9,195 nt of DNA from a virus (taxonomy: Duplodnaviria; Heunggongvirae; Uroviricota; Caudoviricetes), in the IMG/VR virus record IMGVR_UViG_3300010279_000202, positions 1 to 9,195 of that record. One strand, written 5' to 3'. The notes beneath the pieces were generated by a model. It was not told the origin of the DNA. It saw only the letters and a list, made by a program, of their open reading frames with translations, and ran no database searches. The translations under genes were made by a program, and so were the position numbers. Shown piece by piece: positions 1-6,590 of this stretch; positions within the stretch are counted from its first letter, which is position 1; each line of letters begins with the position of its first letter.

Positions 1-706
1 CCACAGGGCATACTTTTGCACGCATCGGCGCGGCGCGTTCTTCCATCATCTGAACATATGCTGTAGCGCGATCGTCATACGGGCGAATATCCGCCTCTTT
101 CAGAGGTCCGCTATCCTGCGTTGCGGCTTTCATCTTATTTATTGATATACGGCAAACTTCTTCCGGCATCAGGTGCATCATGTTGCGCATGAAAGCCCAC
201 CAGCACAGTTCCTGAATACTTAAATCATGGCCATCTGAAAGCCCCATTTCCTGACGGGCGACATCCAGTATCCAGTTAACGCGATTATTATGCAGCGTTT
301 CTTTCAGCTCATTAAAACCACGCATCCGGTAATGGTTATCGTGATGCCAGCACAACAACACCGCGCTATTGTCTCGTTCAGCGTGGACAATATGGTTGTC
401 ACACCAACTACGATCTGCGGCCTGGCATTGACCCTCTTTCCTACGCAACCACGCCACCAGCGCGTCAATTCCACCAATACGGCGAAACAGTTCATCGCTG
501 TTAAAAAACGGCTGCAACGCCTCATTTGTTGCCATAGTCTGCTCGGAAACAACGAGGCCGTCGTCCATGTGCTCGATTAACTCACGCGGCACCGGCTCCA
601 TAATAAATTTACGGCCAGCCTCCACCAGCTTTCTGACTTCCTGATCCACTTTGAATGTGGCGACGCCAAGCTCTTTTTGTACAAAGGGAGTAATTACGGC
701 TTTCAC
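1..706 (-). CDS. Post-doc gene, Cys/His-rich hypothetical protein (possibly P1 pdcB-like); N-terminal 235 codons, C-terminus beyond window
   Basis: Hand translation of the third minus frame is open from 706 to the window edge ([34 protein letters not shown]...[39 protein letters not shown]...). Probable GTG start at 706 with AAAGGTG SD upstream; in-frame TAA at 734-736. Absent from the ORF track, probably because it has no stop in the window. Position after doc and the small ORF fits my recollection of P1 order doc-pdcA-pdcB; identity not verified. Confidence 0.6.
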
Positions 707-733
707 ATCACACCTTTCATCACTGATTGGGCT

Positions 734-913
734 TTATCTGCTGCCCGGCATTCTCTGTTTAAGCACAACCATTTCCTGACGGCATAACACAGCAATAGCG
801 GTCCTGGCACCAATTTGCTTACCAACCAGGTATTGCTTTACCTCGCGGCGACTCACGCCATCAAGAAGCATCTTTAACGCTTCACGGGACAATTTGTTGT
901 ATTTACGTGCCAT
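734..913 (-). CDS. Small post-doc protein, 59 aa (possibly pdcA-like)
   Basis: Track ORF 734..934; ATG at 913 (MARKYNKLSREALK...) lies 5 nt after the doc stop (TAG 918-920), whereas the 934 start would overlap doc by 17 nt. No strong SD for either start. Confidence 0.45.
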   Translation of the reverse strand: MARKYNKLSREALKMLLDGVSRREVKQYLVGKQIGARTAIAVLCRQEMVVLKQRMPGSR

Positions 914-917
914 TAAT

Positions 918-1298
918 CTACTCTGCGGAACCATACAATCTACGTAACGTGTCGGCGACAGAAGATACAGATATCTCTCCGGTCGCAGCCCCTACGGTAA
1001 GGTCTGCCAGTTCAGGTGAATCAAATACCTGCACCCCGTTACGGCGTAGAAATAACAGCGCACTGTTTAGCGCGGTACGCTTATTGGCATCATTGAATAT
1101 ATGCCCTCTCGCTGTAGCCACCAGGTAGGTGGCGGAGACTTCGAAAAGGTCGGTGATCTCTTCGTAGGCAACTCTGGCCTGAACTCTCCCGATAATGGCC
1201 TCTGCCCTACCCGGATCAGACATTCCCGGCAGGCCGCCGTAGCGGCTTATATTCGCATCATGAAGCGCAATAAGTTCTTCCGGTGATATATGCCTCAT
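918..1298 (-). CDS. doc: Doc toxin (death on curing; Fic-fold kinase)
   Basis: 126-aa [25 protein letters not shown]... containing the Fic-type motif HIFNDANKR; matches P1 Doc as I recall it, including its 126-aa length. Start ATG overlaps the phd stop by 1 nt (TAATG at 1296-1300). Confidence 0.93.
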
Positions 1299-1519
1299 TA
1301 TCGGTTAACCAGTTCCTTGTTGGTGGAGTCCAGGGTGTCAAACAGGGATGCAAATTCAGCATCCAGCGCCGCTTTTTTGTAGGCTTCGAAAGTAGCCTTG
1401 CTGACAATTACTGCTGGCTCACGGCCTCTGCGGGTGATTTCAACCTCTTCCCCGGCTTCAACATTGTTGAGCACTTCAGAAAGGTTGCCACGCGCGGTAC
1501 GGAAGTTAATGGATTGCAT
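1298..1519 (-). CDS. phd: Phd antitoxin (prevents host death)
   Basis: 73-aa product [73 protein letters not shown], matching recalled P1 Phd. ATG at 1519 preceded by AGGTG SD; the track's GTG at 1525 adds two residues and is less likely. Confidence 0.93.
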
Positions 1520-1525
1520 AAACAC

Positions 1526-1556
1526 CTCGTGTACTCGTTATGTGTACACAATTATA
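1526..1556 (-). promoter_or_regulatory. phd-doc promoter/operator: two GTGTAC-core palindromic sites next to a TATAAT -10
   Basis: Between the phd SD and a perfect minus-strand TATAAT (plus coords 1551-1556) lie TGTGTACACA (1541-1550) and a second GTGTAC core (1530-1535). This matches the known arrangement in which Phd/Doc autorepress via palindromic operators; the -35 is not obvious. Confidence 0.55.
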
Positions 1557-1591
1557 AACTTCACAGGCATAAAGCACCAGCACTTTGCAGC

Positions 1592-1981
1592 TTAAATAAC
1601 CGGACAATCATCAAATTCCCCACTTCGGGCATCATTGATGACATGAGTGATCACACCAAAAACAGCATTACTGCCCGTGTATCCATCGTCATCTACTGGT
1701 AACGCCTCTTTCTTCCCGGTGCTTAAATCCTCCAGGTGCTGGCGCGGATACTTCCTGTATCTCTTTATGCGATATTCACCCTCCATAGCGCACACAAGCA
1801 GAGAACCATCAACCGGAGTAAGCGAGGAATCAACCACCAGCAAAGCACCCTGCAATATTCCCTCACGGTGATGGCTATCAGCTGCCCGCATGAAGTAGGT
1901 TGCTGATGGATGCCTGATTAGTTGCTGATCAAGAGAAATTCGGCTTTCAACATAATCCGCCGCAGGAGAAGGGAAGCCCAT
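1592..1981 (-). CDS. humD: HumD, UmuD'-like translesion-synthesis accessory protein (S24 LexA-type fold)
   Basis: 129-aa ORF starting MGFPSPAADYVE..., resembling the N-terminus of processed UmuD'. GAGGTG SD about 9 nt upstream of the ATG at 1981; LexA box 22 nt further upstream; lies directly upstream of phd-doc as in P1. Confidence 0.85.
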   Translation of the reverse strand: MGFPSPAADYVESRISLDQQLIRHPSATYFMRAADSHHREGILQGALLVVDSSLTPVDGSLLVCAMEGEYRIKRYRKYPRQHLEDLSTGKKEALPVDDDGYTGSNAVFGVITHVINDARSGEFDDCPVI

Positions 1982-2000
1982 AGCGTTTTCACCTCAATAA

Positions 2001-2020
2001 TACTGTTCATTTATACAGTA
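2001..2020. promoter_or_regulatory. LexA (SOS) box
   Basis: TACTGTTCATTTATACAGTA matches the consensus TACTGTATATATATACAGTA at 17/20 with both CTGT and ACAG arms intact (CTGT 2003-2006, ACAG 2015-2018). Sits in the divergent region between humD (start 1981) and the plus-strand operon (start 2156). Confidence 0.75.
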
Positions 2021-2155
2021 TACATTAAAGAGGCACCTTTGGTGCAAACGCGTTACGTACATCAACCACCGCTGATGATTTTGTGCTCTTTGCTACTATT
2101 CATCACCAACGGATCAGCGTAACCTCGTTGCCAATCAGTTAATAAGGAATTAGCT

Positions 2156-2740
2156 ATGCCTAATCGCATTCCTCTCGATCCTGTATTGCCCAAAAATTTT
2201 GACTGCACTCCTAACGAGAAACGCTCTAAAGCTCAGCTGGACGCCTGGTGGGACCATCCATATGGGGTTACACAACCTGACGGGAAAATTGTAGTTTATT
2301 GTCTGAATGGTGGGGCGTGGGACCGTCCATCCGTGCTTTGTTTGGCAGATAACTATGATGAAGCCTGTGAACTTGCCGAAAGACAGCAGGCAAGCTGGGT
2401 AAAAACACGGTCTGAACCGACATTCATGTTTTCAAAAGAACCGCCATTTATACTGGCGAGGATGCCGCAGCGACCGGATCATCAACAAGAAATTGTTGCT
2501 GAATTTTCCTCAAGGGATGAGATAAATCTCTTCTCATTAAAGCAGGAAGAAAGGGATCGCGTCGAAGTGTCTCCAACTCTCGACCACAACCGGATGAACC
2601 TGGCCCAGCTCGCCTGGTACAGCAAAGAATTAGAGATGTCTATTGCCCGGCTTGAAAACGAAAAAGCCGCTATCCAAGTCCAGCACGAAGTAGTTCTGAA
2701 CCGGATTAGAGAAATGCAAAACGATAACAGGGGATTTTGA
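2156..2740 (+). CDS. Hypothetical protein, 194 aa (N-terminal globular region plus C-terminal predicted coiled coil)
   Basis: Long ORF with AAGGAA SD 7-12 nt upstream of the ATG; stop TGA at 2738-2740 abuts the next ATG. No antisense ORF of at least 60 aa spans it. No catalytic motif recognised. Confidence 0.75.
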   Translation: MPNRIPLDPVLPKNFDCTPNEKRSKAQLDAWWDHPYGVTQPDGKIVVYCLNGGAWDRPSVLCLADNYDEACELAERQQASWVKTRSEPTFMFSKEPPFILARMPQRPDHQQEIVAEFSSRDEINLFSLKQEERDRVEVSPTLDHNRMNLAQLAWYSKELEMSIARLENEKAAIQVQHEVVLNRIREMQNDNRGF

Positions 2741-3097
2741 ATGGCTAAAATCGAGTACCATCGTGATCGCGGTAATTACCTGGAAATATACGATCATGAA
2801 TCTCTTAACGATATCAACGATGCGTTATATGAATACTGTGAAAAAACGAGCATCACAGATGCACCTGATGCATTTGTCGAGCTGCCGGTATATCTCCGCG
2901 ACATCTATGCAATACGAACACCGCCCGTATCGGTGATTCACATTGGCTATGTCCGCCTGTCCATCGAAGAAGATGAAGATCGTTATATCGTGCGCCACTA
3001 TACATTGGACAGAAAAGAACTTCCTAATGAATGGAACATGAGTAATTTCTACAACGGTGAATATGGCTTAAAATCCGCTAATAATTTACGGTCATAA
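2741..3097 (+). CDS. Hypothetical acidic protein, 118 aa
   Basis: ATG directly follows the upstream TGA (TGAATG), with AGGGGA SD inside the end of the upstream gene, indicating translational coupling. Product has net negative charge (about 23 D/E versus 13 K/R). No recognisable motif. Confidence 0.75.
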   Translation: MAKIEYHRDRGNYLEIYDHESLNDINDALYEYCEKTSITDAPDAFVELPVYLRDIYAIRTPPVSVIHIGYVRLSIEEDEDRYIVRHYTLDRKELPNEWNMSNFYNGEYGLKSANNLRS

Positions 3098-3186
3098 TCT
3101 ATACAGGCATGTATAACAACAACGAGCCTATTAGCTGTCAACAACGTTATTTCCTCAAATAAGAAAAAGCAGAAAACAAATTGTTT

Positions 3187-3207
3187 AAGGTCACAAATTG
3201 TGGCCTT
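3187..3207. other. Hairpin: 9-bp stem (one U-G wobble) with 3-nt loop, flanked by the palindrome AAACAAATTGTTT
   Basis: AAGGTCACA-AAT-TGTGGCCTT. On the minus strand the stem is followed by AAACAATTTGTTTTCTGCTTTTTC, so it could terminate leftward transcripts, but the T-run is not immediately adjacent. Confidence 0.3.
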
Positions 3208-3856
3208 GATGGAGGAGGGAGGCTTATTGGCTATGGCTAAAAATCAAATTAGACACTTCATGTTGCTGTAGCTCATCAAGATCCGAGGCCACAAAACCTT
3301 TTCCGAAAAACTTCACAAGTAACTCACTAGCCGCATCATTGTCACCTATTACACGAAAGTCATACGGCAACGTCGCAAGTTGACGATGTAATCCTGCTGA
3401 GAAAGTCGAATCTAACAGCGCCCAGAATTCCCACCGCAGGATAATACTCGCCTCTTAATACTGTATATATGTTGTTACGATATGTTTTTCTGTCTCTAAA
3501 AAAAGATGTTAATAGAATGCTAACCATTGAAGTGGATAAAAATATACAATTCCAACAAACGTTATTTTTAACAATTTTTTTCTTTGCGTTGACTTTCCCG
3601 GACACCTTGTCTGACCGAAGGTGCGCGAAAGCCACTTTTTCCTTCCTGAGTTATCCACAAAGTTATGCACTTGCAAGAGGGCCATTTTCTACATATTGTG
3701 GTGGCTAACAGATGAAATGAATGTAGATTAATTGAAGATAAGGAGAAAATTTGAGATGCAATCATGACGTTAATAGATAGGGTCTGCATTACAGACCCCA
3801 CCCGCATCAAGGAATTAGCCGTTCCCTGATGTTTTTCCGAAAACATGTGCCGTAAG

Positions 3857-3923
3857 CTCACGTTAACGACTTTCATTCACCGAATCCAACTATATAGGGG
3901 TTGGGTTTCTACGTCAACGTGAG
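3857..3923. promoter_or_regulatory. Inverted-repeat pair: 13-bp arms (12/13 match) separated by about 41 bp; candidate operator
   Basis: Left arm CTCACGTTAACGA (3857-3869); reverse complement of right arm (3911-3923) is CTCACGTTGACGT. The arms flank an AT-rich spacer with TATATA (3891-3896) and lie about 40 bp upstream of the small ORF at 3960. Confidence 0.35.
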
Positions 3924-3959
3924 CAAGTGCACCTTTACATTTGACAAGGAACCACCTGA

Positions 3960-4097
3960 ATGAACGCTTTTTTTCAGTTCCTGAGTGCATTTTTAGATGC
4001 GCCTATTATTAGCCAGATTCTGGCTATTATCCTCATCATCGTTTTGATTTTGCTTTTAAGGTCAGTAAAAAATGGAATTATGCACTGGCTTACTTAA
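3960..4097 (+). CDS. Small hydrophobic (single-TM-like) protein, 45 aa
   Basis: ATG at 3960 with AAGGAA SD 9-14 nt upstream; product MNAFFQFLSAFLDAPIISQILAIILIIVLILLLRSVKNGIMHWLT has an uninterrupted hydrophobic core and basic tail. Stop is embedded in the palindrome ATGTTTCAGTGAAACAT. Below the track's size cutoff. Confidence 0.35.
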   Translation: MNAFFQFLSAFLDAPIISQILAIILIIVLILLLRSVKNGIMHWLT

Positions 4098-4172
4098 TGT
4101 TTCAGTGAAACATTAAAATCTCCTTGATGTGGAAACAATCATTTTCTGTATGTGCTGGTGGGCACCTGTAGT

Positions 4173-4535
4173 TCAGCTTTCGTTGGCATTTAACTTCGTC
4201 TTTGCTTTCTCCACCAGCAACTTCCAGATGCCTATTTCATTAGCAGCCGCCTTGATGGCGGCATAAAAAGCATCTTGCTGATCGTAACGCTGGATCTGTT
4301 TTTTCAGTTTTGCCTCCACCAATTTAATTTCATTACGTGCTTTCTGAAGCCGCATCACCGCCCGGTTACGTCTGTTCTTGTATAGCGTGTTAATCTCTGA
4401 CAATTGCTTTAATTTACCAGCCTGACTGTGGATTATCGCCTCCCTGGCTTCTGCCGTGCGTCTCATCTGATCTCTTAAGAGTTCACCGTTTTCGATAATT
4501 CTTTCAAGGTGTTTGATGTGATCTGCAACTCTCAT
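4173..4535 (-). CDS. Hypothetical coiled-coil protein, 120 aa
   Basis: ORF rich in heptad-like K/E/R/L/A/Q stretches; start ATG overlaps the upstream stop (ATGA at 4532-4535). Last gene of the minus-strand operon. Confidence 0.65.
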   Translation of the reverse strand: MRVADHIKHLERIIENGELLRDQMRRTAEAREAIIHSQAGKLKQLSEINTLYKNRRNRAVMRLQKARNEIKLVEAKLKKQIQRYDQQDAFYAAIKAAANEIGIWKLLVEKAKTKLNANES

Positions 4536-5161
4536 ACTTCACCCTCGCTTGTATCACCAGCGTCCACCAACGACAATAAAGCCCTGGCCATCTTATGAAC
4601 CAACAGTGCATCAATAATGCCAAGCGTATGCCCCGGCTTAATGTTTAATGCTGCCTCAAGATGACACCTTTCCAGACCGCTTTTCTCGGCTTGTTTATGA
4701 TGATATGGCGTAATAACGTCGCCCAAAACACGGCTAATTCTTTCTCGTAATTGCTGGGTGCCAGCACACTTGATCGCTGTATCGTGGAGACGGTTAACCA
4801 GTTCGCGATAAACATGCGGCTTAATGCGGATACGTTCACCGGTGACGCCCTTTCCTGGCGCTGGCACCGAACTATCCGGAATATCCGGATAGTTGCCAGC
4901 CTCGTAAGCTACCCGCAGCCAGTGCATGAATGTTTCAGTGGACACACAACCACAGTCCACATCGATTTTTCCGCGTTGCTGTTCCAGCCACTGCTCAAAA
5001 TTCAATCTACACGTATTACTTTCATGTTGCTCTTTTTGTCTCAAGGCCAGCATCTGCTGGGCTATTTCCAATACTTCATCTGCCGTATATCCAGCACCGT
5101 GACCATACATTTCGATACGGGAAATAATCTCTGATATACGCTCTTCAGTTATTCTGGTCAT
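4532..5161 (-). CDS. Hypothetical protein, about 209 aa
   Basis: Track ORF 4532..5176; I prefer the ATG at 5161 (MTRITEERISE...) because it forms an ATGA overlap with the upstream stop (5158-5160), the pattern used throughout this operon. The ATG at 5176 remains possible. Confidence 0.65.
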   Translation of the reverse strand: MTRITEERISEIISRIEMYGHGAGYTADEVLEIAQQMLALRQKEQHESNTCRLNFEQWLEQQRGKIDVDCGCVSTETFMHWLRVAYEAGNYPDIPDSSVPAPGKGVTGERIRIKPHVYRELVNRLHDTAIKCAGTQQLRERISRVLGDVITPYHHKQAEKSGLERCHLEAALNIKPGHTLGIIDALLVHKMARALLSLVDAGDTSEGEV

Positions 5162-5532
5162 TTCTTTTTGCGCCATTTCTTTTCACATTCCTTAGTCCAT
5201 TTTTCAATGTTCATTTTGGCAATATCAGTCATTCCATCACCTAAGAAATACTTTCTCCGGTACGTCTTGCACTTAAACCACACTACAACAGCCACCAGCC
5301 AGAAAATAAAAGGCCATACAGCAATACCAACTCCAGCCGCGATAAAGCCCAATAGCCATAAATGAAGCTCTCCAACTTCTGTTTGCGGCAATATTCTTAA
5401 AGAATTAAGCAGCAGACTGAAGGAATGGTCGTATGCATTGGCGGTATAAGACATGCAATCCATATAATTAAAGTCATAGCCTGCGGCTGCCGCCCATAAT
5501 GGGCGGTCAAGAAAATGTTTTAGTGTCATCAT
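5158..5532 (-). CDS. Small membrane protein, 124 aa, two predicted TM helices plus lysine-rich C-tail; superinfection-exclusion-like by architecture
   Basis: Hydrophobic stretches LHLWLLGFIAAGVGIAVWPFIFWLVAVVVWF followed by the charged tail KWTKECEKKWRKKK. Functional guess rests on architecture only. Confidence 0.6.
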   Translation of the reverse strand: MMTLKHFLDRPLWAAAAGYDFNYMDCMSYTANAYDHSFSLLLNSLRILPQTEVGELHLWLLGFIAAGVGIAVWPFIFWLVAVVVWFKCKTYRRKYFLGDGMTDIAKMNIEKWTKECEKKWRKKK

Positions 5533-6330: not shown

Positions 6331-6590
6331 TATCTCACCTCCAGTCTCCATACCGCCTGACCAATCCGGCTGGCATGGGTATCTTTGGATACTGTTCCGT
6401 CTTTAGCCATCTCCATAAGAATTTTGCGCAAATCTGCCGAACGCCATTCTTCATCAGGAAATTCCTTCTCCATTGCCAACCGCAGATTCCAGGTTGCCAT
6501 CCTGAATGGATATTCCCCGCCGAGAGCTTTATCTTGCAGGGCAGCCCGGGAACGCATCACCTGCAAAACCTTCTCTTTTACATCCATCAT
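6330..6590 (-). CDS. Hypothetical protein, 86 aa
   Basis: Track ORF 6330..6662; preferred ATG at 6590 (MMDVKEKVLQ...) forms an ATGA overlap with the upstream stop and follows a strong AGGAGG SD. Confidence 0.65.
   Translation of the reverse strand: MMDVKEKVLQVMRSRAALQDKALGGEYPFRMATWNLRLAMEKEFPDEEWRSADLRKILMEMAKDGTVSKDTHASRIGQAVWRLEVR

Follow-up and report, generated by a model that had tools for sequence, protein, structure and literature searches.

Two adjacent genes that diverge from the UmuD'-like gene humD, with a LexA box in the shared intergenic region, raise the question of whether they form a new SOS-linked two-gene system, as a sequence-only reading of this DNA had proposed, or belong to a locus that is already known. 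The stretch analysed, called the window below, is 9,195 nucleotides long and is a segment of a P1-like (Punavirus) phage-plasmid. Over positions 1500-3400 it shows 99.9% DNA identity to Salmonella phage SJ46 and 99.0-99.5% identity to P7 and several isolates named 'P1'. Our analysis makes it very likely that what lies here is the known humD-lxr locus in its P7/SJ46-type allele, with separate accessory modules occupying a variable region, rather than a new SOS two-gene system. The features concerned are listed below, with the basis of each in brackets.

918-1298, minus strand: doc (ORF list and sequence).
1298-1525, minus strand: phd (ORF list and sequence).
1592-1981, minus strand: humD, UmuD'-like S24 peptidase (PF00717, E 5.7e-9; phrog_811 UmuD-like, E 4e-55).
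1982-2155, no strand: divergent intergenic region of 174 bp (humD/lxr spacer).
2001-2020, no strand: LexA box TACTGTTCATTTATACAGTA (17/20 against the consensus).
2156-2740, plus strand: lxr, 194 aa, the 'LexA regulated function' of P1 and upf94.2 of P7 (similarity to P1 Lxr and P7 Upf94.2; phrog_6164).
2156-2539, plus strand: LxrN, the acidic N-terminal domain of Lxr, residues 1-128 (pI 5.0; conserved motifs).
2600-2728, plus strand: C-terminal coiled-coil-like helix of Lxr, residues 149-191 (AF2 model).
2720-2743, plus strand: lineage-specific lxr/gene B junction (comparison of Lxr ends among relatives).
2741-3097, plus strand: gene B, upf93.6 of P7, a 118-aa acidic alpha/beta protein (match to P7 Upf93.6; phrog_5797).
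2724-3551, no strand: segment differing from P1, made up of gene B and an AT-rich spacer of about 450 bp (blastn of the window against P1).

The gene layout first described for the pair was confirmed. Both reading frames, of 194 and 118 aa, lie on the plus strand and diverge from humD, which is so named in the P1, P7 and SJ46 annotations, and the TGA of the first (2738-2740) abuts the ATG of the second (2741-2743) to give TGAATG. The description of a co-directional, uncharacterised pair diverging from the LexA box of humD also stands, and lxr and gene B almost certainly share a transcript. An Rfam scan of window positions 1500-4200 returned no structured RNA.

The identity of the two genes was described less accurately. 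P1 hot and lxr had been placed on the humD strand and both were regarded as absent here, with the pair in their place. The absence of hot is correct. lxr, on the other hand, is present, since the first gene is the lxr ortholog itself, and in the P1 record (NC_005856) lxr is divergent from humD, with an annotated LexA site between the two genes and hot after lxr on the opposite strand. The window Lxr is 93% identical over 189 aa to P1 Lxr (P1_gp102, YP_006568.1) and 99% identical to P7 Upf94.2 (AAQ07574.1), and it matches phrog_6164 of PHROGs over residues 1-194 with an E value of 3.5e-135. The product of gene B shares 117 of its 118 residues (99%) with P7 Upf93.6 (AAQ07573.1) and matches phrog_5797 (E 3.8e-77). 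Both phrogs are families without an assigned function. Protein comparison thus leads to known accessory genes of P1/P7-type phage-plasmids, annotated since the P1 and P7 genome records without an assigned function. The exact Lxr sequence is on record in more than 600 contigs and that of gene B in at least 1000, and the two proteins are unchanged in hundreds of E. coli and Salmonella assemblies. A literature search found no functional study of lxr or Upf93.6.

By blastn, window positions 1-2723 and 3552-4907 align collinearly with P1, and the part in between is unmatched. Here positions 2724-3551 stand in place of the 306-bp hot segment of P1. The spacer behind gene B has a GC content of 0.38; in P7, IS903 sits in this spacer after upf93.6, and the window is free of IS903.

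This position is known to vary. A published survey (PMC9603915) counts the stretch from pmgT through hot, lxr and humD among eight regions that vary in P1-like phage-plasmids, and we found four arrangements of the slot among relatives. RCS47 and D6 carry hot and humD in the same direction and no lxr. P1 and L076, an abundant variant of 80% identity, have lxr divergent from humD and followed by a convergent hot. L113-L119 have gene B co-directional behind lxr and then the convergent hot, while the window, P7 and SJ46 have lxr and gene B and no hot. Decayed forms, with lxr deleted and gene B truncated, occur in L121, L125 and L126. Because L113-L119 carry both gene B and hot, gene B is an insertion and the loss of hot a separate event. 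Among PLSDB records, gene B DNA was found in 138, hot in 420, and lxr-like DNA, taken at 80% identity or more, in about 215.

A survey of what lies between humD and the next conserved gene had been suggested as a check, and its outcome is divided. Adjacency and co-orientation of lxr and gene B are kept in the diverged P1-like loci L074, L075 and L122-L124, in which Lxr is 64-68% and the gene B product 54-58% identical to those of the window. Such retention is the strongest point in favour of a functional link, and the two products may interact, perhaps by way of the coiled coil, which only the Lxr forms associated with gene B carry. Elsewhere the genes are separate. L017 and L018, sisters of L075, share with it a 70-aa gene downstream of lxr and have no gene B in between, and lxr is likewise without gene B in P1 and L076, with the LxrN domain occurring on its own in hundreds of plasmids. 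Relatives of gene B are found without lxr, beside unrelated genes, in L012, L016, L085 and L088. Since each gene occurs without the other, they are not an obligate pair, and the claim of a two-gene system is not supported; from their distribution, lxr and gene B are separable modules rather than a two-component system.

The tight TGAATG junction was examined in the same relatives. Lxr of P1, L076, L074 and L075 ends in REVQNG followed by the stop codon, and in L074 and L075 spacers of 9 and 15 nt separate lxr from gene B. In the window and P7 allele this canonical stop is lost and the frame reads on to QNDNRGF and the TGA that abuts the gene B start, and so the window Lxr is 4 aa longer at its C-terminus. 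Compared across these alleles, the zero-spacer junction is a derived, recent and lineage-specific change.

We now consider the SOS link. The 17/20 LexA box was said to be the only recognisable regulatory element, and this was borne out: TACTGTTCATTTATACAGTA is the single LexA-like site in the window, none of 200 shuffles gave one, and a promoter scan found no consensus sigma-70 promoter in the 174-bp humD/lxr intergenic region. The box is identical to that of P1, and a LexA site is annotated in both the P1 and P7 records. Its distance is 19 nt to the humD ATG and 135 nt to that of lxr. The best -10 candidates on the humD strand (2022-2017 and 2002-1997) overlap the box and score no better than background in a PWM scan. 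For lxr, the best candidate is an extended -10 element, TGcTACTAT, at 2091-2099 (promoter 2072-2099), about 75 bp downstream of the box; its score is at or below the window-wide median, and the diverged intergenic region of L074 has an element that aligns with this TGCTA(C)TAT. A weaker candidate on the lxr strand, TTCACC-18-TATACA at 1988-2017, overlaps the LexA box and has a background-level score. The putative Shine-Dalgarno sequence of lxr is AAGGA at 2144-2148.

Comparison with relatives indicates which gene the box serves. In RCS47 and D6, which have no lxr, the same box is found 19 nt before humD, and RCS47 ceases to match the window DNA at about 2035, just beyond the box. The lxr intergenic region of L074 contains a 19/20 box, which precedes an unrelated 84-aa gene by 20 nt, and the homologs of that gene in L017 and L123 (50-52% identity), which are located 1-2.3 kb from lxr, have their own box 15 nt upstream. 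The box of L122 belongs to a humD-like gene downstream of lxr and gene B. Every box near lxr is thus placed 15-20 nt before humD or a gene of the 84-92-aa family, and no LexA box was found upstream of lxr in L075, L017, L018, L019 or L122-L124. Stand-alone LxrN genes have neither a gamma-type nor an alpha-type (GTTC-N7-GTTC) SOS box within 400 bp. Because the box is kept 19 nt before humD where lxr is missing, and the boxes of relatives follow other genes, we assign it to humD, and it is most likely mainly the humD operator. Since it travels with humD or the 84-92-aa gene and not with lxr, the SOS link of the pair is one of neighbourhood only, and the proposal of an SOS-linked pair is not upheld. 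LexA control of lxr and gene B is possible, and we would put it at about one chance in three.

Lxr itself consists of two parts. Residues 149-191 form a single long helix in the AlphaFold model (pLDDT 87.9), in which the a/d heptad positions, read from the sequence, are mostly hydrophobic; this agrees with the coiled-coil tail first proposed, and a weak match to the coiled-coil family DUF7491 of Pfam (E 0.054) was also obtained. Lxr is presumably dimeric through this predicted coiled coil. The tail is found only in the 190-198-aa forms of P1-like and IncHI-like elements and is absent from stand-alone homologs. The N-terminal part, LxrN, has a pI of 5.0 and a net charge of -5, and contains the motifs TPNExRSKxQLDxWWDHPYG, CLNGGAWDR and QRPD. 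Residues 1-125 recur as stand-alone proteins of 130-136 aa with 50-69% identity and 24-29 invariant columns in Klebsiella, Citrobacter, Salmonella, Pseudomonas, Xanthomonas, Burkholderia, Paraburkholderia, Bradyrhizobium, Mesorhizobium and sphingomonads. By tblastn, LxrN is present in 923 of 72,556 plasmid records (about 1.3%), 564 of them typed as conjugative, across Alpha-, Beta- and Gammaproteobacteria. Large Klebsiella IncFIB/IncHI1B plasmids are among its carriers, as are phage-plasmids of the SSU5-like and P1-like types and conjugative elements of rhizobia.

The neighbours of LxrN differ among these carriers. In SSU5-like phage-plasmids it is flanked by a gp32/RecA-like block on one side and a HEPN-Toprim gene on the other, and in 47-kb PromA-like plasmids it is the middle gene of an operon of a 66-aa ORF, LxrN and a serine resolvase, with a 4-bp overlap with the resolvase start. 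Hypothetical genes surround it in IncFIB/IncHI1B and MOBH plasmids. In Rhizobiales the order is traD, traG, an SNase-like nuclease and LxrN, near ArdC and parAB. LxrN adjoins umuC in sphingomonad loci and is near umuDC in Serratia, Kluyvera and Citrobacter plasmids.

Searches of Lxr and the gene B product against Pfam, NCBIfam and PADLOC gave no significant match, nothing was found in PDB by single-sequence or profile search, and a fold search gave no convincing solved fold; the statement that neither protein has an assignable motif therefore agrees with all of them. A profile search with LxrN returned 253 matches, all within the same tight family and none to a distant annotated relative. As far as these alignments go, LxrN is a very strongly conserved protein family for which neither Pfam nor NCBIfam has a model, an acidic plasmid/ICE domain of about 125 aa with a wide distribution, to which P1-like elements add a C-terminal coiled coil. 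Two candidate motifs in this protein were rejected: a beta-clamp-binding motif, QLDAWW, whose Q is not conserved (E in the homolog P0062) and whose segment is helical and buried in the model, and a Cys/His/Asp catalytic triad in LxrN, of which H34 is replaced by R in some members.

The gene B product is acidic, as the sequence-only reading stated, with a pI of 4.8 and a net charge of about -9, and the gene has a Shine-Dalgarno sequence of its own, GGGGA at 2730-2734, 6 nt before the ATG. A HMMER profile search gave 58 matches, about 25 of which are proteins of 100-117 aa that share the motifs PVY, IGYV, HYTLD and W..FY.G.YG. Weak multi-stretch matches to BspA-type LRR_5 repeat proteins were also seen, but such a kinship was rejected, the gene B model being a compact alpha/beta fold and not a solenoid. 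The distant relatives of gene B follow a 320-aa ORF in a Salmonella ccdAB plasmid, a 65-aa ORF in a series of small ORFs, an Mrr_cat gene whose surroundings resemble a defence island, or a 136-aa ORF. We also considered whether an Lxr-like partner precedes these relatives, and rejected it, as the preceding 320-aa and 136-aa genes are unrelated to Lxr. Gene B behaves, to judge from these varied neighbours, as an independently mobile small cassette from a family of acidic proteins of about 110 aa.

Three other explanations were weighed against this picture. If lxr and gene B were one LexA-repressed unit, DNA damage would lead to LexA cleavage and production of both proteins, which would act together, for instance against defence or restriction systems. 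In favour of this are the LexA box between humD and lxr and the choice of 'LexA regulated function' as a name by the P1 annotators, together with the adjacency and co-orientation conserved in diverged P1-like lineages, the acidity of both proteins, and the Tad2-like and dUTPase genes that related elements carry in the adjoining accessory region (locus L079). However, each gene is often found alone, the box goes with humD or the 84-92-aa gene rather than with lxr, and the best promoter candidate for lxr lies downstream of it. PADLOC gave no match, and the fold search linked neither protein to ArdA/Ocr, ArdB/KlcA, PsiB or another solved inhibitor. We consider a single SOS unit quite improbable. 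Still less probable, by far, is a type II toxin-antitoxin or abortive-infection pair in which the small acidic partner neutralises a toxic product. Two small, tightly juxtaposed genes near phd-doc would suit such a pair, but the obligate co-occurrence fails, with lxr or LxrN free of gene B in P1 and hundreds of plasmids and gene B found without lxr, and this distribution largely refutes the reading. In addition, neither protein has a toxin or antitoxin match in Pfam or any match in PADLOC, the gene B product is acidic and does not resemble HicA, the zero-spacer junction is recent and lineage-specific, and knock-down of P1 lxr in a CRISPRi screen of lytic growth gave no phenotype (PMC10695390), lxr being non-essential for lytic growth in that screen.

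Lxr may instead be a sequence- or structure-specific DNA-binding accessory protein, acting in recombination/resolution or damage tolerance, with gene B as unrelated cargo. PGAP labels some members 'DNA-binding protein', and the 4-bp overlap with the serine resolvase in PromA-like plasmids, the SNase-like nuclease and traG beside LxrN in Rhizobiales, the umuC or umuDC neighbours in sphingomonads, Serratia, Kluyvera and Citrobacter plasmids, and the position of P1 lxr between humD and hot all point in this direction. Against it, the domain is acidic (pI 5.0, net charge -5), no HTH, RHH or other DNA-binding model of Pfam or NCBIfam matches it, the PGAP name alternates with 'hypothetical protein' between records and has no traceable model, and the neighbourhoods of LxrN are heterogeneous; we regard DNA binding as unlikely. 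For the suggestion that the pair fits patterns of anti-restriction or anti-defence, toxin-antitoxin or abortive-infection genes, the family searches gave no support: there was no toxin-antitoxin or anti-restriction family match, and PADLOC-DB v2 returned 0 families at E <= 1 for either protein. An anti-defence role is compatible with the context, and positive evidence for it was not obtained.

Under the preferred reading, that of a P7/SJ46-type allele with separate modules, LexA on the box, 19 nt from the humD ATG, would keep humD repressed, and repression of lxr and gene B would hinge on the site of the lxr promoter, whose best candidate is placed downstream of the box. Gene B, lying directly after lxr, would share its transcript and use a Shine-Dalgarno sequence of its own for translation. 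The lineage of the window would have lost hot and read through the lxr stop, leaving the TGAATG junction. The two acidic proteins are most likely non-essential accessory factors that bind a conserved host or mobile-element macromolecule, as suggested by their context and composition. On the same grounds, we give roughly a third of the weight to a role in anti-defence or establishment and about a quarter to one linked to DNA damage or replication, and leave the remainder unassigned. As a tentative and rather doubtful proposal, LxrN might represent a novel kind of factor with which mobile elements establish themselves or counter defences, directed at a universally conserved host component, and the Upf93.6 type a second new family of small acidic inhibitors, repeatedly placed behind LxrN by P1-like elements.

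The genes have been known since the P1 and P7 annotations (lxr, Upf94.2, Upf93.6), and therefore little is new for this window. lxr owes the name 'LexA regulated function' solely to its closeness to a box that the comparative data give to humD, and caution is advised with the SOS role propagated in lxr annotations. The remaining interest is in the uncurated LxrN family, a broad and highly conserved plasmid/ICE domain outside curated families and a reasonable target for functional work. The humD-lxr-hot slot also illustrates stepwise gain and loss of cassettes in a variable region of P1 where resistance genes and IS elements also land.

When compared with known systems, the closest structural suggestions for these proteins were the N-terminal domain of HicB-type antitoxins and small beta-beta-beta-alpha modules (AP2 and the integrase arm-binding domain), with all matches below the usual significance level; the proteins share no sequence similarity with them, and both a HicA partner and a C-terminal DNA-binding domain are missing here. 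The DNA mimics ArdA/Ocr, PsiB and KlcA/ArdB are likewise small, acidic and found among mobile-element accessory genes, but they have no sequence, profile or fold similarity to Lxr or the gene B product, and the likeness is one of style only. Hot of P1, a theta-subunit homolog, fills the slot after lxr in P1-type alleles and is unrelated to gene B in sequence and orientation. P1 lxr and the window lxr are placed and oriented alike with respect to humD, phd-doc and the LexA box; the window allele differs in its C-terminus, which is longer by 4 aa, and in being followed by gene B rather than the convergent hot. P7 Upf94.2 and Upf93.6, together with the hypothetical proteins of SJ46, are essentially identical to the window in both genes and arrangement.

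At the slot, the variable humD-lxr-hot region of P1-like elements, variant LexA boxes such as TACTGTTTATCTATACAGCA and TACTGTTTATCCGTACAGTA, which match 16-17 of 20 positions, were found in six close IMG/VR relatives (L091, L094, L097, L098, L107 and L120), and humD retains at least 97.7% identity in all of them despite these variants. Judged from this comparison, the flanking humD coding sequence is evolving more slowly than its operator. In the deletion variants L121, L125 and L126, lxr is gone and gene B, the gene for the 118-aa acidic protein, is truncated (residues 21-118 or 63-115) and directly adjoins the humD LexA box. These deletions are evidence that decay is still under way at the slot.

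The AT-rich spacer 3' of gene B contains an imperfect hairpin, AAGGTCACA-AAT-TGTGGCCTT, at 3187-3207 of the window; read on the minus strand, it leads into T-rich sequence. The hairpin was not called by the terminator scan. In P7, IS903 is inserted about 150 bp beyond the position of this hairpin.

When the gene B profile was used, matches in multiple stretches, with E down to 1e-10, were obtained within the BspA-type LRR_5 repeat regions of P0148, P0152-P0154, P0158 and others, which are very large proteins. A short sequence pattern common to both, not homology, probably accounts for them.

Further P1-like elements encode 84-92-aa proteins that share a GGGYWLG motif with 50-52% identity and returned no match in the Pfam search. 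A LexA box matching 16-19 of 20 positions lies 15-20 nt 5' of the start of every gene in this family, wherever the gene sits, and the gene looks like an undescribed small one associated with an SOS box. The window encodes no homolog of the family, of which three members are:

L074, 4018-4272, minus strand, LexA box 4293-4312
L017, 6050-6316, minus strand, LexA box 6332-6351
L123, 4708-4986, minus strand, LexA box 4990-5009

Several ORFs of the window and L123 that otherwise differ resemble one another at the start, where each has a version of the N-terminal module M(I/T)TITKER...ELARIALASLEAE:

Window, 4532-5176, minus strand
Window, 6587-7543, minus strand
Window, 8418-8780, minus strand
L123, 5850-6605

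One of these ORFs ends with a DUF551 domain. The module looks like one that is shuffled within the downstream variable region. Just past doc/pdcA, related P1-like elements carry a dUTPase gene and a Tad2-like/DUF2829 gene, the latter of the anti-Thoeris family (L079, 559-1745; L084, 1-901), and therefore the wider neighbourhood hosts counter-defence cargo.

LxrN, the Lxr N-terminal domain, also occurs as a stand-alone plasmid gene. The PromA-like plasmids of about 47 kb from Pseudomonas and Agrobacterium carry a three-gene unit in which the resolvase start overlaps the LxrN stop by 4 bp:

L008-L011, 7790-9040, 66-aa ORF, LxrN, then serine resolvase

In the sphingomonad loci L036-L038 and L042, umuC follows LxrN immediately and is convergent with it, and umuDC lies about 5.3 kb upstream of LxrN in Serratia, Kluyvera and Citrobacter plasmids (L020-L022; L082). 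With humD in P1, the proximity of translesion-polymerase genes to Lxr or LxrN is recurring but loose.
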